Part shown: piece by piece, positions 5,975 to 20,377 of the stretch | Layout of the letters: the number at the start of each line of letters is the position of its first letter | How positions within the stretch are numbered: position 1 is the first letter of the stretch | DNA from: a virus | Lineage: Duplodnaviria > Caudoviricetes | IMG/VR virus record: IMGVR_UViG_3300027112_000002 | Location: 1 to 59,669 of that record | DNA length: 59,669 nt | Reading direction: 5' to 3' (one strand) | Program-made: the position numbers and the translations under genes | Notes under the pieces: model-generated | Database searches by the model: none | What the model was told of the DNA's origin: nothing | What the model saw: only the letters and a program-made list of their open reading frames with translations

Positions 5975-6565
5975 ATGACTAAAACTGGACAACCAAGATC
6001 AGAATCACAAAAGGAACGGGATTTACGGCGTGAAGCCGATATGTATTTCCGTGGCAAATCCCAGCAGGAGATTTGTGCGGAATTAGAATTAAGCCCTGCC
6101 ACGGTGTCTAGAGATTTGAAATCCTTGCAGCAAGAATGGAGGGAGTCAAGACTCTACGACATGAACGCTGCCAAGAATAAGGAACTGGCGCGTATAGACG
6201 CTTTAGAACGGACATATTGGGAGGGATGGGAGAAATCTTTGCAGATGGCCCATTCCACATCCGAGGGAATCTCAGGGCCGGGTTCCACGGTTACACTAAA
6301 TTCAGAACGGGAACAATTTGGTGACCCCCGTTTCCTGAATGGAGTTATGTCATGTATCGAAAAGCGTTGCGCAATCCTGGGATTGAATGCCCCTAAAGAG
6401 GTAGTCCCGGGCGGCCCTGGGCAGTTGACATGGGCCCAATTTATCGGAGCTAATATTACCATAAACAACAATAATTCTTCCCCGCAAGAACTGTTTGCGG
6501 GCGCACAACAGAACAATTCTGTGATAGATGTGGTGCCCACGAATGTCGATCAGCCCCAGCCCTAG
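5975..6565 (+). CDS. terS: Terminase small subunit
   Basis: N-terminal HTH (SQQEICAELELSPATVSRDL), ILGLNAP tail, directly before terL. Confidence 0.8.
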   Translation: MTKTGQPRSESQKERDLRREADMYFRGKSQQEICAELELSPATVSRDLKSLQQEWRESRLYDMNAAKNKELARIDALERTYWEGWEKSLQMAHSTSEGISGPGSTVTLNSEREQFGDPRFLNGVMSCIEKRCAILGLNAPKEVVPGGPGQLTWAQFIGANITINNNNSSPQELFAGAQQNNSVIDVVPTNVDQPQP

Positions 6566-8093
6566 CCAAATATCGCAAGACCCCGAATTATTCGCATCCG
6601 TATTCCTTAAAATAACAGACAAGGAAAGACGGCTTGTTCCGTTTTACTGGAACCGCGCCCAAAAACACTTCCATGCTAATCGTACTGGAAGGGACTTAAT
6701 ACTTAAATCCAGGCAATTGGGCTTTTCTACACAAATACAGGGGGAAATGTACAGGCGTACTGTTACCTCCTCCAGATCAACCATCACGTTGGCACACGAT
6801 GCAGACACTACCACCAAACTTAGGCTTATGGCCGACACGTTTTGGATGAATGGCAAATTCAATGGTATTCAACCTCTTCGCAAATATGCCAATGCATCTC
6901 TTACCACCTATCCCGAATTAAACTCCATAGCTACCATCGCCACTGCGGGTACAGTGGAAACTGGTCGTGGTGGTACGTACACAGATTTCCATGGGTCGGA
7001 AGTGGCCTTCTGGCCGGATGCGAGAAAACTTGTGGCCGGCGCTATGCAGGGCGGTAGTCCTGATGTAGTACTGGAATCCACCCCCAACGGAGCCCAGGGC
7101 CATTTTTATGATCTTTGCATGGAGGCGCTGCATGGAGTAGGCGTATGGCGTCTCCATTTTTATGCTTGGTGGTGGGACGTTGGATATCAAATCCCGCTGG
7201 ACCCCGAGGAAAAACTGGAGTATGATGATGATGAGATAAGACTGGTCCAGGCCAATAATCTTACTCCACAGCAGATTAAGTGGCGTCGCAATAAAATAAA
7301 CGAATTAAAAGACCTTTTTCCACAAGAATATCCGGAAGACCCCGTTACCTGCTTTCTCACCAGCGGTAAAGGATATTTTGGTGATCTAAGCAAATCCTTT
7401 AATGCACCAATGAACGCAGCATATACTCCTGGCCACAAATATGCTGCGGGATTGGACTTCGGACAGGCCAATGACTTCACAGCCATGCCCGTATTGGATT
7501 TTACCGACAAGGTTCAGGTTGACCTTCTCCATTTAAGAGGGATGGAGTGGGCAGAAATACGAAGGCGCATCAAACAGAAAAATGATAAATGGCACCTGGA
7601 TGTAATACTGGGGGAGAAAAACTCCATAGGAAATATTAATATCGAAATGTTGCGCAAAATGAATGTCAATGTTCGCCCCTTCGAAATGACCAATACGGAG
7701 AAGGCGGGCATAATGTCAGATTGGAATGAGGCCCTCCATGAGGGAGGCTGGCAAATGCAGAATTATCTAGTACAAAAGAATGAATACAACATATTCGTAG
7801 CCACTCAATTGCCCGTTTCCGGGGCCTGGAGATTGGCTGCATCTGGTGATGGCCATGACGATACTGTCATTGGAGGGGCCCTGGCCTTCCGTGCCGGCAG
7901 ATATGCCGTAACGGACGAAGAAATGGAGGCCTACGGCAAGGGAGAAATGAACGAGGAAGATATTGACGATGATATGATTGAATATCATGCGGAAATAACT
8001 GGAATGACCTTTGAAGAATCTAAAGCTGATCTAATAAAGGAAGCTAAAATATCTAAAGCTATGGCCTCTGCCATAGATGGAAAAAGGAGATAA
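6543..8093 (+). CDS. terL: Terminase large subunit
   Basis: Walker A ILKSRQLGFST, HGSEVAFW, ESTPNG, nuclease GLDFGQAND and GHDDTV. Confidence 0.95.
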   Translation: MSISPSPSQISQDPELFASVFLKITDKERRLVPFYWNRAQKHFHANRTGRDLILKSRQLGFSTQIQGEMYRRTVTSSRSTITLAHDADTTTKLRLMADTFWMNGKFNGIQPLRKYANASLTTYPELNSIATIATAGTVETGRGGTYTDFHGSEVAFWPDARKLVAGAMQGGSPDVVLESTPNGAQGHFYDLCMEALHGVGVWRLHFYAWWWDVGYQIPLDPEEKLEYDDDEIRLVQANNLTPQQIKWRRNKINELKDLFPQEYPEDPVTCFLTSGKGYFGDLSKSFNAPMNAAYTPGHKYAAGLDFGQANDFTAMPVLDFTDKVQVDLLHLRGMEWAEIRRRIKQKNDKWHLDVILGEKNSIGNINIEMLRKMNVNVRPFEMTNTEKAGIMSDWNEALHEGGWQMQNYLVQKNEYNIFVATQLPVSGAWRLAASGDGHDDTVIGGALAFRAGRYAVTDEEMEAYGKGEMNEEDIDDDMIEYHAEITGMTFEESKADLIKEAKISKAMASAIDGKRR

Positions 8094-8793: not shown

Positions 8794-11700
8794 ATGGCTA
8801 TTATTAGAGTACCCCAAGACAATTTTCACAAATACACGGTAGTGACCGGCTCAGGTGCGTATAACCTCCCAAAGGATGACGTAGATACCATGTATGGCCC
8901 TGGATGGCCCATTGCCCCCATCGCCCGCCCGGAAGACAACAATATACCCAGAGAAATTGATTATCCCGTGGCCATCAATGCCACACTGCAACCCAGGATT
9001 GGGTATGAGGGATTAATGCCCACTGCAGCGCTAAAAGCTGCATACACTAATGTCACCGAAGTGTCCACTCCCGTTAATCTCCTAATACGAGAATTGTCGG
9101 GGTTCGTGCCAATGTTGAAGAACAAGAAGACCAAACAAAAAATATCCAATGATCATCCATATAATTGGATGACTTTATATCCGGATAGAGTCACCCCATT
9201 TAATGTGTGGCTATCCAGATATAAGAAAAGCGCCAAAATATATGCTGCCCCCGCTTTCTTCAAACGAAAGAACAGCAAGGGGGAGACGGACGCCATGGAG
9301 TATATTGATGGGTCCACGTTGTTTTTGATAGTCAATTCGAGGGGCAAGCTGCCCGAGCCCGGAGAAGTGGACCCGGAAGTATTGATGCATATTGAAGCCA
9401 TAAGGCATGGTATAAAAAATGTTGGGGATGACAGATTTTTATCTGCCATGCCACAAGTGGCCAGAAATTATCTGGACAGGGCGAGGAAGCGAATAATTGA
9501 GGGGAAGGAATTACCAATAACTACCCCTGCGTTCACTCAGATAATTAAGGGTATACCTTTCTCATTTTGGGATAAATCACAAATATATTTCGTTCCTGAG
9601 CCCCCTGCCCCTGCTGTAGATAGTCCGTATGGCGAAGTTTATATAGAGAGATCATGGCCATGGATTCAGCTGGTGGCTCTGCTTACCGCTTTTGAGTTGG
9701 GCCATTATAGAACGGGGAATATGCCCGAGGGGTTTGCGGCCATGCCCAAGGAATGGTTCCCCACTATGACTAAGTTGGCGCTGGCTGAAAAGGAATTCAA
9801 TGCTCGCATGGCATCTGGTTCCCAGACCCAACACTCCAGAATTCGTTTTGGTCCTGAGGGTATGAAGTACATACCCACCAAAAAGCCCGATTTCCCCGAC
9901 AAATTGTATGCCACTGCTCGCCACAACATATATTATGCCCTGGGTGTTCCGACTTCCGAAATTGGGGAAAGGTCATCCCGTGGGTTGGGTGGAAAGGGGT
10001 TCGAACAAGGGGCTGCGCACGACATGACCCGCCAAATTCTTGAGGCCGAGAAGACATCCGTGGAAGGAGCCTTTAATAGTGTATTGGAGGACAATGGTGT
10101 AGACGATGCCGAATTTTATCTGGACTATCCCCAGGAAGAAATCGACCCCTCCATGCAACAGGAAGCCCTATGGAATCAGCTGATTCATGGCAGTATGACT
10201 CTAAACGATGTATTGACTGCACAAAATAAGGAAGTAATTGGAACAATAGAGGACAAGGATAATATTGCCAACATGCATTTGATCGTAACCGGGTCTTCGG
10301 TATATGTTCTGGAGAAAGTGGTAGCGGATGACACTGGGTTGGTGGCTCCATCTAACAAGCAGTCCGCGGAAGCCGGTGGCAGCCCCGTTGGCCCCGAGGA
10401 TGGAATTACCGAAGGAAAGGAACACACACCTGAGGATGTAAAAACAGTTAAGAAATTGATGTCCCAACTGGAACTATCAAATGGGAAAAACCTGGGGTCG
10501 GTCCATTATTCACTCCCTGCAATGGAAAAGTCGCACCCCAAGAATAAATGTTTTAATTGCAATAAGCCCCCCACAAAAGACGTATCTTATGCGATGGCTT
10601 TTGGACGAATATGGTTGTGCGATGAGCACTTTAAGGAATTCAAATCCAAAACCAAAAGCAAAATATATGTGCACGACATAAATGGGGTAGCTCCCGATAA
10701 ATGGAAGAAGTTGGAAAAAAGTGAAGAATATGAGCCAGTTGAACCGCCCCATGGGGTAGAATTGGAACAGTGGCGTATGGGTATGGAGGAGGAACAGAAG
10801 CATGCCACCACCTTTAATGGGGACCAACAAGTAATATCCCGTTTGGTAGTCAATAATTTGAAGACTGACCCGGCATACTATACCCATCAAGAGGTAAAAA
10901 GAGCCAGACAGGAGCCACTTGTAAAACATGCTGGCCCAACTGTGGCTGGACTGGCTGTCTTAGCAGCAGATACCAATAGAGTATTGATGTTGCAGCGAGC
11001 CCTGGGAGTTGAAGATGACCCAGCTGCGGGCACCTGGGAATTTCCGGGAGGGCACGTAGAAGGTAGTGAAACACCCTTCGATGCGGCTAAACGGGAGTGG
11101 ACCGAGGAAACCGGCCTGTCCCTTCCAGATGGCCAATGTGTTTGCGAATGGAACACTTTTGATGGAGTGTATAGGGGATATGTATATTTAATAGAGTCGG
11201 AAGATAAATTGGATATACATGATGATAGGAAATCCATTAATCCTGATGACCCGGATGGTGATAACACTGAATCCATTGCATGGTGGCAAATATCCCAGCT
11301 TAGGAATAACTCATCCCTAAGGCGAGAGTTGTCTGCAGATATATTCCATGTGGAAGAGGCCCTATCACGAGCCACAGAGAAAATGGAAAAAATAGACTGG
11401 GTCGAATATTTCAAGCATTGTGGTGTGTGCCCAGGGGATGAGCAATATTTCAACTCTCCCATATCTAGAATAGCTACTTCTTCTGCCCCCTTTGATGAGC
11501 ATTATGGGATGTCGGAATTGGTGCACATGAGTCCACCTGGACTGGAACCCATGCCCGCCTTGTGGATGGCTGAGGGGGAGGAGACAGCTTCGGATATGTT
11601 GGGTCCCCGATATTTAAGGGAGGAGGCTGCGTGGTTATTATCCCAGTCTCTCGATTTCCCGTTGGTTCCCCTAGCCTTTGTATCAGAAATTGACCACGAG

Positions 11701-12135
11701 CAGGGGGCAGCGGTATGGGCTGTACATGGAACCGGCATCACTCCCCATAAGGATATATCCAAATATGGAGAGGGATATTTGGAACAAGCGGGCATTCTGG
11801 ACCACATCATGGGACAGAGGGGAAGAGACATAATTCAAAATTATGTGACTCACCCTGACGATAATTCCAGGATGGTCTTAATAAACAACGGTCAAAGTTT
11901 TTCCGGAGATGGACAGGATAGAGTGTTATCCGTATTCTGCCAGAACATGATCGGTAAACCAATATCGGAGGCATCTTTGGCTTCCGTGGAAATGTGCTTG
12001 GGAGACGCTGCAACATGGAGTGATATTTTGGAAGTATTGTCCTCTGGAGACAATGCTGCCAATGCCGAATTGGCTGTTGCCGCTGCCAAAGCACGCGCAC
12101 AATCCATATTGGACAATAAATCTTTGAATCTATAG
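8794..12135 (+). CDS. Portal protein fused to Zn-finger, DUF5661-like, Nudix hydrolase and PI3/4-kinase-like pseudokinase domains
   Basis: Position after terL; portal motifs (YIDGSTL, YGEVYIE, GNMPEG, GVPTSEIG, MTLNDV); intact Nudix box GGHVEGSETPFDAAKREWTEETGL; REEAAWLLSQSLDFPLVP. Confidence 0.85.
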   Translation: MAIIRVPQDNFHKYTVVTGSGAYNLPKDDVDTMYGPGWPIAPIARPEDNNIPREIDYPVAINATLQPRIGYEGLMPTAALKAAYTNVTEVSTPVNLLIRELSGFVPMLKNKKTKQKISNDHPYNWMTLYPDRVTPFNVWLSRYKKSAKIYAAPAFFKRKNSKGETDAMEYIDGSTLFLIVNSRGKLPEPGEVDPEVLMHIEAIRHGIKNVGDDRFLSAMPQVARNYLDRARKRIIEGKELPITTPAFTQIIKGIPFSFWDKSQIYFVPEPPAPAVDSPYGEVYIERSWPWIQLVALLTAFELGHYRTGNMPEGFAAMPKEWFPTMTKLALAEKEFNARMASGSQTQHSRIRFGPEGMKYIPTKKPDFPDKLYATARHNIYYALGVPTSEIGERSSRGLGGKGFEQGAAHDMTRQILEAEKTSVEGAFNSVLEDNGVDDAEFYLDYPQEEIDPSMQQEALWNQLIHGSMTLNDVLTAQNKEVIGTIEDKDNIANMHLIVTGSSVYVLEKVVADDTGLVAPSNKQSAEAGGSPVGPEDGITEGKEHTPEDVKTVKKLMSQLELSNGKNLGSVHYSLPAMEKSHPKNKCFNCNKPPTKDVSYAMAFGRIWLCDEHFKEFKSKTKSKIYVHDINGVAPDKWKKLEKSEEYEPVEPPHGVELEQWRMGMEEEQKHATTFNGDQQVISRLVVNNLKTDPAYYTHQEVKRARQEPLVKHAGPTVAGLAVLAADTNRVLMLQRALGVEDDPAAGTWEFPGGHVEGSETPFDAAKREWTEETGLSLPDGQCVCEWNTFDGVYRGYVYLIESEDKLDIHDDRKSINPDDPDGDNTESIAWWQISQLRNNSSLRRELSADIFHVEEALSRATEKMEKIDWVEYFKHCGVCPGDEQYFNSPISRIATSSAPFDEHYGMSELVHMSPPGLEPMPALWMAEGEETASDMLGPRYLREEAAWLLSQSLDFPLVPLAFVSEIDHEQGAAVWAVHGTGITPHKDISKYGEGYLEQAGILDHIMGQRGRDIIQNYVTHPDDNSRMVLINNGQSFSGDGQDRVLSVFCQNMIGKPISEASLASVEMCLGDAATWSDILEVLSSGDNAANAELAVAAAKARAQSILDNKSLNL

Positions 12136-12153: not shown

Positions 12154-12993
12154 ATGAATTACAAGAATGAGCAAGTGTCTCCCCCCGGGGAGACGGACTT
12201 TGATCTGGCGGGTAGCCTTGCATGGGTGGTGGAAAACTTAACCTTTGCCCTAGGCATGGCCCTCATGTTTTCCAAGACTGTTGATTTGATGGCCGCTTTT
12301 GCCCCTGCTACCATATTTGGGTATTCAGGGGTCGCCCTGTTCTATGGGTTAGCTGTTGGGGTGCTTATTGAAGGAGCGCTGTTTGTTATGAAACTCACTC
12401 TGCCCAGAGCCAAGAATGTAGTTGACTGGCTGTGGACGGTGGTGGTTATAGTTACTCCATTTTTGATAAGCGCCCTGGCTCAGGTGTTCGATTCATTCAG
12501 GGTGGGAGATGCCTTGAAGGAACAACCGCAAGAAATCCAGACATTTATCAGCTGGTTCGTTCCATCGATTCCCACGATTATTATGGCATTGTTGTTAGGG
12601 AAATCCATATTCTCTTCAATACCTAAGGAGTTGATGCAACAAAAGCCCACGTCTGCTATTGCTCCCTCTCTTACCCCTGTCACATTATCGTCACCTAAAC
12701 CTGATCATGGCGACCAACTGATGAAGAGGTTAAAGAATTCCAGATTCGTAGGCAGATTCATGTCACCTCCCAAGAAACAAAAGGTGGCACAGGCTACAGA
12801 CTCACCTATACATCCACCTACATTGTGTGCTGTGTGTCGTGCTGAATTGCCTTTCATTGAATATGGTAGCAAGATAGGCAAGGACAGTAAGCCAGCCAAA
12901 TGGCCAATTTATGAGAAATGTGTCAATCCGAAATGTACAACTGGGCGCAAAAATTTGGGGCTGCCAAAAGCGTTGCCCGGGAGCCAAGTATGA
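12154..12993 (+). CDS. Multi-pass membrane protein with C-terminal zinc ribbon
   Basis: About 4 hydrophobic helices; CAVC...CVNPKC domain shared with gene 45355-45945. Confidence 0.75.
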   Translation: MNYKNEQVSPPGETDFDLAGSLAWVVENLTFALGMALMFSKTVDLMAAFAPATIFGYSGVALFYGLAVGVLIEGALFVMKLTLPRAKNVVDWLWTVVVIVTPFLISALAQVFDSFRVGDALKEQPQEIQTFISWFVPSIPTIIMALLLGKSIFSSIPKELMQQKPTSAIAPSLTPVTLSSPKPDHGDQLMKRLKNSRFVGRFMSPPKKQKVAQATDSPIHPPTLCAVCRAELPFIEYGSKIGKDSKPAKWPIYEKCVNPKCTTGRKNLGLPKALPGSQV

Positions 12994-13397
12994 GAAAGAT
13001 ACTGGCGACACTGTTGTTAATAATGGCTTCCCTGGCCTGTCAAAAAACCCCGGACTACGTTGTTAGAGGGTGGACTGAAACCCCTTCGGCTGTAGTGGGC
13101 ACCAGCACTCTTCCCGTTGGTCCTACCATTATACTTGTTACAGCTACTCCTGCCCAATATGAGGCTTCTGTAATAGCGGATATATTGGAGATACGTAAGG
13201 GACCGGGCACCAAATACCCCTCCAGTCCTGACTATCTTTCTAAGGGGGAGACAATATTGGTTATGGAGTGCCAGTATGACCAACTAGGCGAAGCATGGGT
13301 TAGATTTGTCAGGATTAGAGACAATCTGACTGGGTGGTCCGCTGTGACCCAGCGCAACTCAATATTTATTAGGCCCATGCCGGGTAGGTGTGAATGA
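12990..13397 (+). CDS. Lipoprotein with SH3b-like domain
   Basis: Signal peptide ending SLAC; LEIRKGPGTKY...LSKGE...W...GW SH3b pattern. Confidence 0.75.
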   Translation: MRKILATLLLIMASLACQKTPDYVVRGWTETPSAVVGTSTLPVGPTIILVTATPAQYEASVIADILEIRKGPGTKYPSSPDYLSKGETILVMECQYDQLGEAWVRFVRIRDNLTGWSAVTQRNSIFIRPMPGRCE

Positions 13398-15187
13398 ACC
13401 AGATAGACTTTTTTTGTAGAAGTGCATATTATCTGGACCATATGATACCTGTATGGGATGCCATACATCCAGATAATAGGGGGGATTTCTATCTGTCCTC
13501 CCACTGTGCAGAGGAAGCCAGGAAGTATCCTCACATACAATTCATGGCCTATATGGAGGGGGGCCAATGTGGAGACGGCCCCATATTGACAGCTTCCTAT
13601 GGGGACGCTACCCGTGCTTTAGAATGTAATGACAGGCGGCCTGTTATACTTATAGAACATGGAGCGGGTTTGACTTTTGGAAAGGCAGCATATGCCGACG
13701 GGTTGGGGCAGAGAACCAAAATGTCCCTGCTGCCCGTTCAAAACAGTTATATATTGAACAAGGTACACCCCGAGTTGAAGCACATACCCCACCCTATAGT
13801 GGGTATGCCTAAATTGGACCCCTGGGCGGGAAAATTTGCCAAACATATTATGGGCAAGAACCCCACTGTGGCCATATCGTTCCATCATGGTACCAAAAAT
13901 TCCAGGCCGGCAGAGATAGGCAGTGCTGGAGAGCATTATATTGGAGTGCTGCCTGAGTTGGCTGGTAAATTTAATCTAATAGTACATGCCCACCCCATCA
14001 TATCCAGAGACATGAAGGAATATTGTAGGTCCATGGGATTGCCCTTTGTGGCTGACTTCAATGAGGTAATGCGCAGGGCGGACATTTACATAAATGATGC
14101 CAGTTCCACCCTGTATGAATTTATGGTAACGGGAAAGCCGGTGATTATATTGAATGCCCCGTGGTTCGACAGGAAAGCCAATTGGGGCCTTAGATTTTGG
14201 GATTTTACTGACATTGGTCCCCAGGTGGATTATCCGGACCAGCTTATCGAAACTGTAGAAAGGGTAGTAACTGGCCCCGACACTTTTAGACCCAATCGAT
14301 CGAAAGCAGTATCCAGGCTGTTCCCCTATTTGGGTTCCTCTGCGCAGCGAATGGCCGATGAAATAAGCAAACATTTAAAATTTAAGAAATCTACCACTCA
14401 TATACCGTCTATTCAGCCTAAAACCACCTTCATATCTAAAATGCTGCCAATAAAGGCCTCCATGGACCAGGGTATACTATATATGGCTTTTGGCGATAAG
14501 GCAAGGGAGGAGATGGAGAACAGCATTACCACTCTAAGGAACACCAACAATGTACTGCCTGTGTGTGTCCTTGGGGACGAGGCGGGTATGTCCTCAGACC
14601 CGAGTGTATATGGAATTTCTACCCATATTCCCTGGAAGGGAGAGTCGCCTTTTGATAAAGATAAGGCCAACGGGTTCCAATTTAGAGCCGGCAGAGTAAA
14701 GCCCTTCATATATGGCCTTTCTCCCTTTAAAGAAACACTGTACATGGATTCGGATACCCGTTTTCTGAAAAGGCCAGACAAAATATTTGGGTTTCTCAAC
14801 TCCTGGGATTTCGTGATAGCCCAGGAACGCCTATCAGTGTCTCAGTTGTACAATAAACCCAGGGCCGGATGGGCACATAATTTGGAAGAGAGGGATGCTA
14901 CTGTGGAAGAATTTGGGGGCGATGGAAATTTCCCATTTTGGAATTCCGGGGTTTTCCTATTTAAGAAAAATAAGGCTGTTGAAGACCTGTTTAAACACTG
15001 GCACAGAGAATGGATGAGATGGCAGCAATGGGATGAGCAATTGTCTCTAATGCGAGCCGCCAATCGATCTAAAGTGAGGGTGTTCGTATTATCTGAGATA
15101 TGGAATTTTCCACATGAACAGGGAGCCGAAATAATACTTCATCTATATGGCCGTGGTGCGGCCCGAATCCAAAAGGAGAAAATATGA
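13394..15187 (+). CDS. Two-domain glycosyltransferase (CDP-glycerol glycerophosphotransferase-like GT-B plus GT-A)
   Basis: EHG, GMPKLD, HAHP, ADIYINDASSTLYEF..TGKPVI; then LYMDSD (DxD), NSGVFLF, DEQLSL. Confidence 0.85.
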   Translation: MNQIDFFCRSAYYLDHMIPVWDAIHPDNRGDFYLSSHCAEEARKYPHIQFMAYMEGGQCGDGPILTASYGDATRALECNDRRPVILIEHGAGLTFGKAAYADGLGQRTKMSLLPVQNSYILNKVHPELKHIPHPIVGMPKLDPWAGKFAKHIMGKNPTVAISFHHGTKNSRPAEIGSAGEHYIGVLPELAGKFNLIVHAHPIISRDMKEYCRSMGLPFVADFNEVMRRADIYINDASSTLYEFMVTGKPVIILNAPWFDRKANWGLRFWDFTDIGPQVDYPDQLIETVERVVTGPDTFRPNRSKAVSRLFPYLGSSAQRMADEISKHLKFKKSTTHIPSIQPKTTFISKMLPIKASMDQGILYMAFGDKAREEMENSITTLRNTNNVLPVCVLGDEAGMSSDPSVYGISTHIPWKGESPFDKDKANGFQFRAGRVKPFIYGLSPFKETLYMDSDTRFLKRPDKIFGFLNSWDFVIAQERLSVSQLYNKPRAGWAHNLEERDATVEEFGGDGNFPFWNSGVFLFKKNKAVEDLFKHWHREWMRWQQWDEQLSLMRAANRSKVRVFVLSEIWNFPHEQGAEIILHLYGRGAARIQKEKI

Positions 15188-15753
15188 AAAAGAGCATTGA
15201 AGAAATAATTAAGATGGCAGAGCCTGTGCGTCCGTTGACCGAGATAATAGAACGGGAGTGTTTAGCCCGTCTGGCTCAGGAGGTTGATCACAACGGGAAG
15301 TCCATCGTGGAAATTGGGTGTTTATATGGAGGAATGACTGCAGTTTTAGGTATTGCTGCTCCTAATTCTCAAATAACCACCATCGACGATTTCAGCTGGC
15401 ACCCGGAAGATGACGTACCAACCAGCGCTGATCTTTTGCTTAGCAACATGAAGAAAGTGGGGGTATCCAACGTCCAGGTATTGGAAGGAGACAGTCGGCG
15501 GATTGGTATAAACTGGTTCTCCCCCATCGATCTTCTATGGGTGGATGGTGGACACAGCTACGACTATGTATTCATGGATTTGATGTTGTTCGGAGTACGA
15601 GCTAAGACTATAGCCTTGCATGATTTTGGTAATCCTTTTTGGGCCACTATCAAACAGGCCATTGAAGATTTCTTGCGTCTGACAGATGGAATGTTCATAC
15701 TATCAGAGGTCGCAGGAACTGTAGCTGTGCTGCGAAGAACAGAGGGCAGATAA
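15184..15753 (+). CDS. Class I SAM methyltransferase (Methyltransf_24-like)
   Basis: VEIGCLYGG, IDLLWVDGGHSY, IALHD. Confidence 0.9.
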   Translation: MKKSIEEIIKMAEPVRPLTEIIERECLARLAQEVDHNGKSIVEIGCLYGGMTAVLGIAAPNSQITTIDDFSWHPEDDVPTSADLLLSNMKKVGVSNVQVLEGDSRRIGINWFSPIDLLWVDGGHSYDYVFMDLMLFGVRAKTIALHDFGNPFWATIKQAIEDFLRLTDGMFILSEVAGTVAVLRRTEGR

Positions 15754-15763
15754 CAGGACCAGA

Positions 15764-16579
15764 ATGGCAAAAATGAGGTCTACCCAAAGAAGGAACAAAA
15801 TTATCACGGCCAGGGGCAAAGCCGAGGAAGAGGTAGCGCTTGCATTGGCCCCCGTTTTCAGGTCCCAGCATAAGAAATTGGAAAGGTTTCTTAGGAAGGC
15901 CAACTTAAAAAAGCGGATGAACAAAATAACTACGGTGGCTATTGTTGATAATCCGAATATTTCCATGGATGAGATTTCGAGTATAAAGGCTGTAGCCATA
16001 ATGAAGGCGGACATGGGGCCCAGTGATTGGGAAGAATGGCGAAGAGTGGCAATGGTTGCCATGGCAGCCGCTCTGGCTGGAATAGTGGCAGCCATGTTGA
16101 ATATAGAAAATGAGATGCTTCTATCCAGAGGATTAACCCCCATAGAATTAACTGTTCCCGAATTGATAGCTGCTTATGAGCAATATACTAATTCATCCTT
16201 TGGCGATGCATTGGATTCCACAATGAGGGGCATTGAGAGAGAGTTGGCTCAATGGTATGCCATGGAAGAACCTTTTCCAATGCTAATGACCAGAATGAAT
16301 AAATGGTTTGACAGGAATAGAATAGAATTGATAGCCCAAATGGTGGTGGGGCGAATAATAAATCAGGCCACTTTGAAAACGATGCGGGTTAATGGGTGGT
16401 CCCAATGGTATTGGGATGCAACGGGAGAGAAACCCTGTTCAGTACCCCTGGCAATAAATGGACAACAGTATGAGGGATGCATAGATTTGCATGGAAGAAA
16501 GTTTTCCATTGGGGACCCAATGCCTCCTGACGCAGCCCATGCTCATTGCCATTGCCTTCCCTCCCCGGTCATGCAATGA
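15764..16579 (+). CDS. MuF-like head morphogenesis (minor capsid) protein
   Basis: RIELIA...WYWDA...C..LHG...PP..AHAHCHC (HPNCRC-like). Confidence 0.75.
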   Translation: MAKMRSTQRRNKIITARGKAEEEVALALAPVFRSQHKKLERFLRKANLKKRMNKITTVAIVDNPNISMDEISSIKAVAIMKADMGPSDWEEWRRVAMVAMAAALAGIVAAMLNIENEMLLSRGLTPIELTVPELIAAYEQYTNSSFGDALDSTMRGIERELAQWYAMEEPFPMLMTRMNKWFDRNRIELIAQMVVGRIINQATLKTMRVNGWSQWYWDATGEKPCSVPLAINGQQYEGCIDLHGRKFSIGDPMPPDAAHAHCHCLPSPVMQ

Positions 16580-17070: not shown

Positions 17071-17133
17071 GTAGTATGTTTGGAGAGGCGGTTTCAGACT
17101 CCTGGGCCGCCTCCCAGCATATTACGGAGCATA

Positions 17134-18771
17134 ATGCCTGATCAAATATTCTCGATTTACCTGCCCTTAGAGAAAACTGAATTACAGCCAGATGGCACCA
17201 TGCTAGTATGGGGGAGAGCCACTCAGGAAACTCCTGATTCTGATGGTGAAATTTGCGATTTCGAAACTTCCGCCCCGCTTTTCCAACGTCGATCACAAAT
17301 GATGAAGGACGCAAGCGAGGGCAAAAATTTATTCCCTTTGCGATCAATGCACCAACCAATAGCCGCCGGCAAAATAGTTGAAATGAATTATTTATCTGAG
17401 GATAAGGCTATAGATGTTTGTGCTAAAGTAATCGATGAAAACGAAGTAAAAAAGGTAAAAGAGGGGGTATATACTGGATTCAGTGTTGCAGGAAGATATG
17501 CCAGACGATGGCGGGACCCGACTTCCCAATATATGCGATACACTGCGGACCCCAGAGAAATAAGCCTGGTAGACGTGCCGGCTGTTCCCACTGCTAGATT
17601 TACGATGTTTAAACTGGAGGGGGACGATGATATTGACCCTCTTATTTCATCCTCTGTTGCTCCTGAATGGGTGGCTGATTTCATAAAAGCAGTCAGTAAG
17701 CTGGAAGAGTTGAATCTTCTGGAAAAGGCCGAAAAGCAGCAACAGGAAAATAAATTAAAAGCTCTCGGAGAGCGAATCGGAATTCCAAGACGAGACGGCT
17801 CCCCGTTAAGTGCACCAAAAGAATATCCAAGTGATGCCAATGAGTATGGCGACCCGGCTAATTGGGCCTATCCAGTAGATTCTTCAAGGTCTACGGTGGC
17901 CGTGGGTCGTTTCAATGGCGGGATAGGTGCTGAGCAATACTCGCCTCGCAGTCGCCATGTTCTAGGGCGCAGAATAGCGAGATTGGCGAGCCGTTCTGGT
18001 ACTAAATATAAGTATGACCCCGCATCCAAGAAAATAATTAATGATAAGGTAGGTAAAACTATGAGCGATTCAGAACATGATCAGTTATTGCAGTTAAAGG
18101 CTGCAATAGACAATGCTGTGGAGTCTGTTGAAGGCAATCCGACTTTGGCTAAAGATGCTCTTGGAACCATCGTCAACCAAGTTAGAGGATTGGCCAATAC
18201 CAGCACTCCGGTTGGTGCAAACCCATCTGGTCCGACTTTGAATACGGGAGTCCCCATCAAGGCTGCCGAGGATAAGAAGGAGGATGAAGACGCCGAGGAC
18301 AAGAAAGACAACAAGGCCCCCGAAGCGGAAATCAAGGAAAAACTCCCCCCTGCCGTCGAAAAGACAGCTGCAGCCGTGGATGTCAAGGAATCTCCCGAGT
18401 ATAAGGCTTTGATGGCCAAACTTGAGGAGCAGGTGGGCATCAATGCGAAGATCAGTGCAACATTGGAGAAATCCAATGTAGTATTGGAAAAATTCGCAAA
18501 GATCACGGACAGTCCATTGGGTGACCTTAACTCATTGGTTAAGGAAAAGAAGAACGACACTGACCCAATTGTGGCTGCCCTGATGGAAGGCGGCCCATAT
18601 GCCATGGCTAAAGCTTTGAAATTGGCGGGCGGTGATGATGAATTCACCGGCGCTATGGCTTTTTCCAAGGTAAATGACGCCATTCGTAGGGAAACCTACC
18701 GCACACTTGAAGAAGGTGGTGTGGTAACATCTGCTCGCTACGCTGGCCGGATTTACTCTCCCGCTAGCTAA
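17134..18771 (+). CDS. HK97-type prohead protease fused to a DUF6582-like domain and a scaffold
   Basis: LRSMHQ, YTGFSVAG, EISLVDVPAVP; YGDPANWAYPVD...RRIARLA; coiled acidic C-terminus. Confidence 0.9.
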   Translation: MPDQIFSIYLPLEKTELQPDGTMLVWGRATQETPDSDGEICDFETSAPLFQRRSQMMKDASEGKNLFPLRSMHQPIAAGKIVEMNYLSEDKAIDVCAKVIDENEVKKVKEGVYTGFSVAGRYARRWRDPTSQYMRYTADPREISLVDVPAVPTARFTMFKLEGDDDIDPLISSSVAPEWVADFIKAVSKLEELNLLEKAEKQQQENKLKALGERIGIPRRDGSPLSAPKEYPSDANEYGDPANWAYPVDSSRSTVAVGRFNGGIGAEQYSPRSRHVLGRRIARLASRSGTKYKYDPASKKIINDKVGKTMSDSEHDQLLQLKAAIDNAVESVEGNPTLAKDALGTIVNQVRGLANTSTPVGANPSGPTLNTGVPIKAAEDKKEDEDAEDKKDNKAPEAEIKEKLPPAVEKTAAAVDVKESPEYKALMAKLEEQVGINAKISATLEKSNVVLEKFAKITDSPLGDLNSLVKEKKNDTDPIVAALMEGGPYAMAKALKLAGGDDEFTGAMAFSKVNDAIRRETYRTLEEGGVVTSARYAGRIYSPAS

Positions 18772-18817: not shown

Positions 18818-20377
18818 ATGCCAGGATTAACTGATACTGATGGCTTGATCTTAGCCCTCAATCAAATGAGCGGATTTGGAGATTTCAATGCCAATCAACT
18901 CGATTCTTTCAAAAAGGCGCTGACTGCAACCTCAGGTTATACTGGATATAACCTCGAACGTGAAGTCAAAATGCGTCTGCCCGCGTATACGGTTCTTCGC
19001 AATCGTGTGGCGGTTGACCCAGGCCCCGTAGGGGCTATGGCTGGCCCTCAGGCCAACTACAAAATGCAATTGGGCTATAATGGCTTCGATTTCGGTGCTG
19101 CAATGGGCACTGCATTTGGTGGTAATGGTGCCGAGGGAAATCCCAATGCAGTGAACATTGGGGCGGATTATAAATCCCAATCAATTCATGGCTCCGTGCA
19201 ACTTGAAGCCATCGATTTCGCCCGTCAGTTTACTGACCCGGTGAAAGATCAAAGCATGTTTAACCTGCAAACCTTGATGCGCATCGAGGAATTGGTGGTC
19301 ACCGGCGGCAACGAGTTTGCTATTGATGCCCCCGTTCCCGTTGGGTCCCAGGGTGCCGCGGGGGCTCTGTTCGCAAACGGCGTTTGGACGGTAAAGGTAA
19401 CAGCGATTACCTTGGAGGGCAAACTTCGTAATGATACCGGCGCTGCCACTCCTGTAAGCGCCCACACCCCTGGAGAAAGTGTCCCGGGAACTGTGGCCAT
19501 TACCGTAAGTGGTGGCACGAAAGGCTATTTGAACGTCAGCTGGCCCGTGGTTGAAGGCGCTGTAGGTTATAAGGTTTACTGTTCCGATGAATATGGGGAT
19601 TCCACGGATGTTTACCTGTTGGACCCCGCCACAGAAATTGCTTATAAGGATGGGGCCGCTTTTGTCCCGACCTCCACTGGTCAAAAATGGATTGGGGTCA
19701 ATAATATTCGTATTATTGCTCCTCCTGCTGGTTCGGTGGCTTGTCCTTCCGTTGATGGTTCTGCGAACGACAACCAGTTCGAAGGTTTCGTAGCGTGGTC
19801 AACCAAATCGACCATGTACGGTGTTGATCTTGTGGGTGCTGGAGAGCGTGTCTTCCTCGATATGGATGGCGGGCTTTTCACCACGGATACTGCTGGTGGT
19901 GTTAAGGAAATTAACACCGTTCTGCAGCGTTTGTGGGTTATGTATCACACAGCCCCAACCCTTATCGTTGGGTCCCCGGCTACGGTCAGTTCTTTGACTG
20001 CCCGTATTGCCTCCCAGTCCATGATGCGTTTGGACTTAACTCAAAAGCAGAACAAAATTGTTGGTGGCATTATGATCGGCGGGTATTTGAACCGCTTTGC
20101 TCAGAATGCCGGCATGTCAACGGATATTGACATCATTGCCCATCCTTATCTTCCGGATGGTTTGGTGTTGTTGCTGTCCGAAACCCTGCCTCCCGACACC
20201 TATCGCTTCGCCCAGGATAGCCGCTGTTTTGCCCTCGATGTCCTTCGCCCGTATAACTATTTCCCGCTCGCTTCTTCCGATCGCAATGTAAACTTTGACA
20301 TTTGGTATCTTGAGACTCTCAAGTGTTATTACCCAACTGCCCAAGCTGCCATTGGTGGAGCCCGCGTCGATTCCTAA
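18818..20377 (+). CDS. Major capsid protein with internal Fn3/Ig-like insertion
   Basis: Follows protease; FKKALT processing-type N-terminus; NVSWPVVEGAVGYKVY; IIAHPYLPDG. Confidence 0.85.
   Translation: MPGLTDTDGLILALNQMSGFGDFNANQLDSFKKALTATSGYTGYNLEREVKMRLPAYTVLRNRVAVDPGPVGAMAGPQANYKMQLGYNGFDFGAAMGTAFGGNGAEGNPNAVNIGADYKSQSIHGSVQLEAIDFARQFTDPVKDQSMFNLQTLMRIEELVVTGGNEFAIDAPVPVGSQGAAGALFANGVWTVKVTAITLEGKLRNDTGAATPVSAHTPGESVPGTVAITVSGGTKGYLNVSWPVVEGAVGYKVYCSDEYGDSTDVYLLDPATEIAYKDGAAFVPTSTGQKWIGVNNIRIIAPPAGSVACPSVDGSANDNQFEGFVAWSTKSTMYGVDLVGAGERVFLDMDGGLFTTDTAGGVKEINTVLQRLWVMYHTAPTLIVGSPATVSSLTARIASQSMMRLDLTQKQNKIVGGIMIGGYLNRFAQNAGMSTDIDIIAHPYLPDGLVLLLSETLPPDTYRFAQDSRCFALDVLRPYNYFPLASSDRNVNFDIWYLETLKCYYPTAQAAIGGARVDS

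Follow-up and report, generated by a model that had tools for sequence, protein, structure and literature searches.

A portal protein extended by Nudix and PI4KII-like kinase modules and carrying candidate prohead protease sites in an uncultured siphovirus-like phage

The virus record IMGVR_UViG_3300027112_000002 (Duplodnaviria; Caudoviricetes), whose 59,669 bp constitute the window analyzed here in full, is a complete genome with direct terminal repeats and a G+C content of 47.8%. It belongs to an uncultured, siphovirus-like phage; the siphovirus-like tail follows from the genes for an adaptor and a tape-measure protein located after the capsid gene. The head module contains an open reading frame (ORF) of 1113 amino acids (aa), P0001 (8794..12135, plus strand, as are all features of this ORF described below), in which a portal protein is continued by a zinc-ribbon-like motif, a DUF5661-like helical domain, a Nudix hydrolase domain, and a kinase-like domain. 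The gene lies downstream of the large terminase gene (6528..8093, plus strand; phrog_2, E value of 1.1e-20) and upstream of the genes for a MuF-like protein, the prohead protease, and the major capsid protein, an order shared by related loci. An earlier note, made from the sequence alone, had described this frame as a single portal polyprotein with cleavable cargo domains, and it does consist of one uninterrupted reading frame.

Homologues were collected by a protein search, giving a set of 83 proteins including P0001; the 82 others are 692 to 1214 aa long and show the same N-terminal portal. All 83 proteins were searched with six segments of P0001, and Pfam scans were performed on 44 homologues. 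The AlphaFold2 (AF2) model of the 1113-aa protein, based on an alignment of 78 sequences (A1), shows a mean predicted local distance difference test score (pLDDT) of 74. Well-folded segments comprise about residues 65-510, 546-561, 650-705, and 875-1113, and segments with a pLDDT of <50 are found at residues 521-533, 569-581, 597-605, 620-647, 706-716, and 846-873.

The portal core spans residues 1 to ∼520 (8794..10353) according to the AF2 model and Foldseek comparisons, with pLDDT values of mostly 85 to 97 for residues 70-510. Among solved portals, Foldseek matches the model to that of phage 812 (8qem; E value of 6e-9, 445 columns) and of HK97 (8fql; TMt of 0.67), with further matches to the T5 and gene transfer agent portals. 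The proposed portal of ∼500 aa is thus recognized by its fold, in the absence of any match of P0001 to the Pfam family Phage_portal (PF04860) at an E value of ≤1. Nine of the 44 scanned homologues match this family at an E value of ≤1e-3, and P0072 exceeds the cutoff (53.3 bits versus 39.1). Megablast gave no match to the ORF among 50,697 phage records, and tblastn gave distant portal matches (20% identity) together with matches to the Nudix part alone. The core is followed by a post-portal linker (residues 521-576; 10354..10521) with family-wide conservation, which contains the modeled helix at residues 546-561 and ends in a Y-S-L-P anchor, for which the homologues show the consensus [YI]-S-[IVL]-P.

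Three smaller modules lie between this linker and the kinase-like domain. The Cys/His zinc finger named in the earlier note corresponds to a zinc-ribbon-like CxxC-x20-CxxH motif at residues 586-612 (10549..10629), with a phrog_11291 match at residues 588-624; the motif is kept in all four proteins having this segment (P0001, P0002, P0003, and P0026). The DUF5661-like helical domain follows at residues 655-698 (10756..10887), in a region (residues 650-705) modeled with a pLDDT of 85 to 96. Its Pfam match (PF18905) has an E value of 2e-4 and, at 22.1 bits, stays below the gathering cutoff of 27 in P0001, and homologue P0002 reaches 41.8 bits at the aligned place, so that the assignment is subthreshold here and above threshold in homologues. 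A search of the open-access literature on DUF5661 found nothing. The Nudix hydrolase domain (residues 720-837; 10951..11304) is assigned with an E value of 1.2e-16 (PF00293; 61.3 bits versus a cutoff of 21.1) and by phrog_1198 (2.3e-20). The Nudix box occupies residues 753-775 (11050-11118) and contains every Glu; it had been called perfect, and near-perfect is the better description, as one "U" position is occupied by Trp. Matches to NCBIfam substrate subfamilies (MutT, RppH, and NadM-type models) are all far below threshold, and the region is poorly modeled by AF2 because few homologues carry it. Of the modules in the extension, the Nudix domain alone is predicted to be an active enzyme.

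The joining of portal and extension is almost certainly genuine. The alternative, an assembly or sequencing artefact linking a portal gene to downstream genes, found no support; the one circumstance in its favor is that the sole contig to cover the ORF from end to end possibly derives from the source sample. This 59.6-kb contig from run X1 is identical in sequence, and, given its possible origin, it does not count as independent. A second sample of the same study (X2) supplies seven contig pieces without any difference or gap; they cover positions 8794-9460, 9603-10763, and 11358-12135, with gaps in coverage at 9461-9602 and 10764-11357. The covered range 9603-10763 includes the point where the portal passes into the first cargo module, and the C-terminal domain is likewise identical. 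No stop codon or frameshift parts portal from cargo in the X1 and X2 contigs wherever they cover the ORF. The portal is common to 82 other proteins from many assemblies, 68 of which also have the kinase-like domain, and none of the 78 proteins in alignment A1 is shorter than 692 aa. In addition, the cultured Arthrobacter phage Mufasa8 has an annotated portal-Nudix-MuF gene of 1000 aa. The artefact was therefore rejected as extremely improbable, on account of the architecture conserved among homologues and the identical second-sample contigs.

The C-terminal domain (residues 874-1113; 11413..12132) shows the fold of type II PI4 kinases, which bears out the proposed kinase-like domain. A separate model of residues 863-1113 has a pLDDT of 89.1 and a predicted template modeling score of 0.89. 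VIA-align places PI4KIIalpha (4pla) closest, with a Z score of 17.6 and a root mean square deviation of 3.8 over 226 aligned residues, ahead of Fam20C (Z score of 14.7), CtkA (13.2), and HipA (10.9); Foldseek likewise matches PI4KIIalpha (E value of 4.7e-5; TMq of 0.57). Profile methods contribute little here. PF00454 (PI3/PI4 kinase) gives no match to this domain of P0001 and is subthreshold in 5 of the 44 homologues, with P0056 the best at 25.4 bits versus a cutoff of 27.1. A profile search of the PDB with alignment A1 found only FAM20A (E value of 0.8), and the TatB match obtained with alignment A3 (E value of 0.18) was discarded as irrelevant. As the PDB profile searches gave nothing usable, the folds are identified by structure prediction. 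PI4KIIalpha/beta, Fam20, CtkA, and HipA share the fold with 16 to 19% identity. Compared to PI4KII, the phage domain is much smaller (∼240 aa), belongs to a phage without phosphoinositide context, and has lost the Lys and both Asp residues.

The family consensus contains the motifs A-L-W-K, Q-x-D-R-x3-H-N, and L-I-D-N-G, which, going by the PI4KII motifs and the partial PF00454 matches, look like three elements of PI3/PI4 kinases, namely, the Lys that binds ATP, the catalytic loop, and the metal-binding Asp. This K/D/D triad is kept in 62 of 66 aligned sequences. P0001 instead has M925, G1010, and N1031 at the places of the ATP-binding Lys and the two catalytic Asp residues; P0020 has also lost all three, and P0007 and P0008 have lost two of three. 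We infer from these replacements that this phage has kept the domain as a pseudokinase, for a noncatalytic role that is probably structural or related to assembly. Three of the four proteins with triad loss (P0001, P0007, and P0008) are the only Nudix-bearing portals in the set, an association that may reflect one lineage or else a functional trade-off. Separately, the kinase-like domain is present, with no portal attached, in about 20 proteins of 230 to 450 aa that have an initial Met (P0098, P0100, P0104, P0105, P0130, P0137, and others); they may be stand-alone forms, split forms, or fragments. An Atlas search gave leads only, namely, bacterial proteins of 220 to 250 aa with PF00454 in 12 to 38% of cluster members and one neighbor cluster named "SCO1664 family."

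Across the 83 proteins, the elements that are widely shared are the portal, the post-portal linker, and the C-terminal kinase-like domain, the last occurring in 69. The segments in between are scattered, with DUF5661 in 29, the zinc motif in 4, and Nudix in 3 (the Nudix-bearing portals named above). Among the 44 homologues scanned with Pfam, 2_5_RNA_ligase2 is found in 28, LigT in 27, PF18905 in 17, AKAP7-type 2H in 4, and Nudix in 2. In P0070 (730 aa), an ADP-ribosyltransferase exoenzyme domain (E value of 5e-22) replaces the kinase-like domain after the portal, and P0073 (1214 aa) combines DUF5661 and LigT with a zeta-toxin/AAA_33 P-loop kinase. As judged by these domain assignments, the middle region is swappable and holds mostly a 2H phosphoesterase, rarely Nudix, and in single cases an ADP-ribosyltransferase or a zeta-toxin-like kinase. 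The variable C-terminal cargo expected by the earlier note is therefore found in the form of variable inserts; the kinase-like domain does not behave as swappable cargo. A search with this domain alone against 1.84 billion representatives returned 113 clusters, and 66 of the 74 matches of at least 600 aa also carry the portal N terminus. Together with its presence in 69 of 83 proteins, this coupling marks the domain as a hallmark of the portal clade.

The same coupling would be expected if the extension were a permanent, uncleaved part of the portal, its twelve kinase-like domains and their tethers forming an inner structure under the crown, such as a holder of the DNA end, a headful sensor, or a plug, with enzymes that are vestigial or act only on substrates in or near the head. 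A search restricted to shorter proteins is in line with this, as it found no close portal without the extension; its nine matches are seven fragments of 111 to 334 aa and two distant full-length portals of 22 to 31% identity. The retention of the domain in P0001 despite M925, G1010, and N1031 and the very strong conservation of the KHCGVC sequence at its border point the same way. However, the triad is kept in most sequences, and catalysis is therefore under selection in them, the Nudix box is intact, and the 2H, ADP-ribosyltransferase, and zeta-toxin-like inserts have no obvious structural use. A rigid structure would also not need long disordered linkers with positionally conserved Lys residues. 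On this evidence, a permanent extension is considered unlikely.

These linkers carry the hydrophobic-x-Lys motifs from which processing had been proposed, and all five lie at exactly the positions given for them. MEKS (residues 577-580; 10522..10533), with a candidate site after K579, is located in the low-confidence segment 569-581; LEKS (residues 640-643; 10711..10722) and LVKH (residues 709-712; 10918..10929), also candidate sites, lie in the low-confidence segments 635-647 and 706-716. The border before the kinase-like domain (11383..11418) holds MEKI (residues 864-867), inside the segment 846-873, and YFKH (residues 872-875), which straddles its end. The predicted structure thus places all five motifs in or at the end of disordered linkers, as their description as domain-border motifs implied. 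The linkers with a pLDDT of <50 make up 104 of the 1113 residues and contain three of the four occurrences of a hydrophobic residue followed by E-K (post hoc Fisher P value of 0.003). The position of the Lys residues is partly conserved: 57 of 76 homologues have a Lys within 6 aa after the S-x-P anchor, compared to 23.5% for random positions, and 32 of 65 have a hydrophobic-x-Lys motif 5 to 16 aa upstream of the KHCGVC anchor, compared to a null of 16%. The motif [LIVMF]-E-K-[AST] occurs 7 times in the 87 ORFs of the proteome (18,965 aa) versus 3.5 expected, with two occurrences in the portal protein and four in the protease/scaffold protein; shuffling gives post hoc P values of 0.01 (portal extension) and 6e-4 (scaffold part).

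The presumed processing enzyme is encoded at 17080..18771 (plus strand), where a probable S78/HK97-type prohead protease of ∼180 N-terminal residues continues into a fused scaffold-like tail. All 16 aligned sequences have H91 and S135, and Peptidase_S78_2 and Peptidase_S78 profiles match 9 and 2 of the 16 homologues, respectively; the window's own protease gives only a weak TIGR01543 match (E value of 4.5e-4) below the cutoff. The homologue profiles and the invariant H91 and S135 point to the S78 type, in agreement with the HK97-type protease postulated at the outset. K178 is invariant as well; it is located between the end of the protease fold and an acidic variable stretch, with the consensus L-V-K-A-D-G. 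As a residue of the protease-scaffold junction, it counts, like the Lys positions of the portal linkers and of the capsid motif described below, as indirect comparative support for processing after Lys. The further motifs listed for the protease/scaffold protein (LEKT, LEKA, VEKT, and LEKS) and for the capsid N terminus (FKKA) are all present.

The major capsid protein (18818..20377, plus strand) carries a candidate counterpart to the linker sites. Alignment of the capsid proteins of the window phage and 16 related loci shows the motif [LIFV]-x-K↓[ASGTN], usually followed by x-T, in 15 of the 17 sequences; in the remaining two, the motif is off by one register. The window phage has F-K-K↓A-L-T with K33 at the candidate maturation cut (18908-18919). 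In four related loci (L017, L021, L025, and L028), ∼180 to 240 aa of additional, scaffold-like sequence precede the motif at the N terminus, and this delta-like domain would, from the alignment, be removed exactly at the h-x-K↓A/S motif (h, hydrophobic). These four loci have shorter protease ORFs, and the window phage carries the scaffold-like region on the protease instead.

In solved portals, the C-terminal crown side faces the capsid interior. Covalent linkage combined with this topology would bring twelve copies of the extension, one per portal subunit, into the procapsid, and a location of the extension inside the head is very probable. There, the presumed S78 prohead protease would cut after K579, K642, K711, K866, and possibly K874 in the disordered linkers, a step that the sequence motifs leave at even odds. 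Cleavage would set free four internal head proteins, namely, the zinc module, the DUF5661 module, the Nudix hydrolase, and the pseudokinase. The freed Nudix enzyme would exit with the DNA and, just as infection begins, act on a host molecule derived from nucleotides, which by analogy to published predictions could be ADP-ribose or another NAD-derived signal or else capped or triphosphate RNA ends. Most relatives carry, as the corresponding cargo, a 2H phosphoesterase and an apparently active kinase. To the overall reading, in which portal-borne modules are cut free by the protease and the Nudix enzyme leaves with the DNA, we assign a probability of roughly 0.5; the narrower claim of ejection with an early role against host defense, based on analogy, falls somewhat short of an even chance.

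Several observations weigh against this reading. The more general motif [LIVMF]-x-K-[AS] shows no enrichment across the proteome (46 observed versus 40 expected) and is consequently unusable as a stand-alone site predictor, and the P values given above are post hoc because the motif was chosen after seeing these sequences. The homologue counts are not independent, as the homologues are related, and in many of them the Lys after the anchor stands in P-S-G-K, without a hydrophobic P3 residue. K874 may be structural, since KHCGVC is conserved far beyond the need of a cleavage site. LEKT was rejected as a cleavage site for the reason that its K32 is invariant inside the protease fold and probably structural, and an alignment of 21 protease/scaffold ORFs was too divergent and of too low complexity for conserved sites in the scaffold regions to be read. 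The dead kinase and the strict coupling of domain and portal fit a permanent structural role equally. Proteins must also unfold to pass the portal and the tail channel. Cleavage, release, packaging, and ejection are all inferred steps.

Fusions of similar domains to other head proteins bear on the anti-defense role. At L003 (14630-17791 of a Rhodocyclaceae metagenome-assembled genome [MAG] contig), the protease ORF also encodes an N-terminal Nudix domain together with Acb1, an anti-CBASS domain (Pfam E value of 6.5e-35), which supports an anti-defense interpretation of head-protein fusions in general. Acb1 (PF23474) was seen only in this protease fusion and in none of the 44 portal homologues. 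Such fusions also suit a different account, in which the enzymes act in the producing cell late in infection, destroying immune signals or repairing RNA, and the fusion serves coexpression without delivery. Nudix and 2H domains also occur on MuF and prohead protease proteins (Pam4 gp13 and the L003 protease), as if any late head protein would serve, and Iyer et al. name the countering of immunity aimed at the packaging apparatus as an alternative in the text consulted (PMC9503650). On the other hand, all fusion partners seen (portal, MuF, and protease) end up inside the head and none is a tail or lysis protein, and a cytoplasmic enzyme would gain nothing from a structural carrier of 12 copies. 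Action confined to the producing cell is accordingly rated as quite improbable.

The MuF-like head protein of the window phage (271 aa; 15764..16579, plus strand) shows a weak Phage_Mu_F match at residues 176-264 and a phrog_2662 match. Nothing follows the MuF region, and the gene has no extension, as the earlier note had stated. Between the portal and MuF genes, two enzyme genes are located inside the head module, encoding a glycosyltransferase of 597 aa (13394-15187), with the glycosyl/glycerophosphotransferase-type domains Glyphos_transf, Mannosyl_trans3, and Nucleotid_trans, and a methyltransferase of 189 aa (15184-15753); these enzymes may modify virion proteins. Directly after the portal gene lie two ORFs of 279 and 159 aa with an overlap of ∼75 nucleotides (12154-13397), which have no Pfam or PHROG match and whose products could be further head-internal proteins. 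Three small ORFs separate the large terminase and portal genes. Upstream of the large terminase, a small helix-turn-helix protein of 196 aa (5975-6565) shows weak helix-turn-helix matches and a match to phrog_645, labeled "Rnase E"; judged by position, it is probably the small terminase. A scan of genome contigs gave matches to three MAG contigs only, binned as Lentisphaerae, Anaerolineales, and Rhodocyclaceae.

The idea of enzymes carried by the portal and ejected from the head is already in print as a computational prediction. Iyer et al. describe, in the text consulted, 2H and PBECR domains fused to MuF or portal proteins and T4-NudE-like Nudix domains fused to MuF, portal, and the capsid-processing serine peptidase (PMC5512222, PMC9503650). 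Head packaging and injection were inferred for such fusions (Iyer et al. 2017, PMC5512222; Iyer et al. 2022, PMC9503650), so that the central cargo idea has been published with the same inference. Their polyvalent or effector fusions resemble P0001 in linking at least two effector-type domains to a virion head protein, here the portal with Nudix and kinase-like domains. A portal-tied PI4KII-like kinase and processing by an S78 protease at Lys sites are not mentioned in the text consulted, and the figures and supplements of these papers may hold such cases. MuF polymorphic toxins of temperate phages (PMC5576092) also combine a head-internal carrier with a variable C-terminal enzyme or toxin, as far as the text consulted describes them; their carrier is MuF, in contrast to the portal used here, and P0001 has no MuF domain.

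Among phages with annotated genes, gene 3 of the Arthrobacter phages Mufasa8 and Sonali is similar in being a long portal ORF (1000 aa) that neighbors the terminase gene and continues from the portal into a Nudix domain, and this Nudix part is 46 to 47% identical to the one described here. The gene is annotated as "portal protein" or "portal and MuF-like fusion protein." Its portal belongs to a different clade, with a clear PF04860 match and no tblastn similarity to the N terminus of P0001, and the protein ends in MuF instead of a PI4KII-like domain and has no zinc ribbon or DUF5661 detectable by Pfam. Pseudanabaena phage Pam4 gp13 is a MuF-Nudix protein annotated as a maturation protease, and a PHROG profile "portal protein" already includes a Nudix region. 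Internal head proteins of the T4 and phiKZ type carry targeting propeptides, and a protease of the T4 gp21 type cleaves them after Glu. They are separate polypeptides, in contrast to the window phage, where the portal is the carrier and the protease is probably of the S78 type with a presumed preference for Lys. T4 Alt and other internal proteins and the ejection proteins of phiKZ and SPN3US are, according to the portions consulted of PMC9503650 and PMC10052503, taken up by the procapsid, processed by the morphogenetic protease, and ejected along with the DNA. The HK97 capsid protein is cut at K103/S104, as given in the text consulted (PMC10275583); the enzyme is the gp4 protease. The window phage resembles HK97 in its probable S78-type protease and in the h-x-K↓A/S motif at the start of the presumed mature capsid part. 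In the window phage, the scaffold is fused to the protease and not to the capsid protein.

A search of the open-access literature for a portal-linked kinase or PI4K found no relevant report, and the text consulted of PMC7824862 likewise held none. Within that literature, exclusive of the figures and supplements of Iyer et al., three features seem to be undescribed: a PI4KII-like kinase domain as the defining trait of a portal clade, the decay of this kinase to a pseudokinase in the present phage, and a capsid maturation site matching the Lys sites of the portal linkers. A broader picture can be drawn only tentatively, and we regard it as rather doubtful. In a rare clade of environmental phages, the portal would serve as a stoichiometric loader for a family-defining PI4KII-like kinase and one or two exchangeable anti-defense or RNA-end enzymes (2H, Nudix, ADP-ribosyltransferase, or zeta-like kinase) on disordered linkers; linker Lys sites matching the capsid maturation site would allow the S78 protease to free twelve of each for coejection, and the Nudix lineages would have let the kinase decay to a scaffold.

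If the extension is cut and ejected, the phage would possess a simple and countable enzyme preload of twelve copies per virion, with covalent linkage as the address and the normal maturation protease as the means of release. The enzymes would then act before phage gene expression, at the time when host immune signaling starts. The portal clade constitutes a natural series of cargo domains swapped on one carrier, which makes the hypothesis of head-packaged effectors testable, and the conserved PI4KII-like kinase of these portals points to a possible class of virion-delivered kinases.

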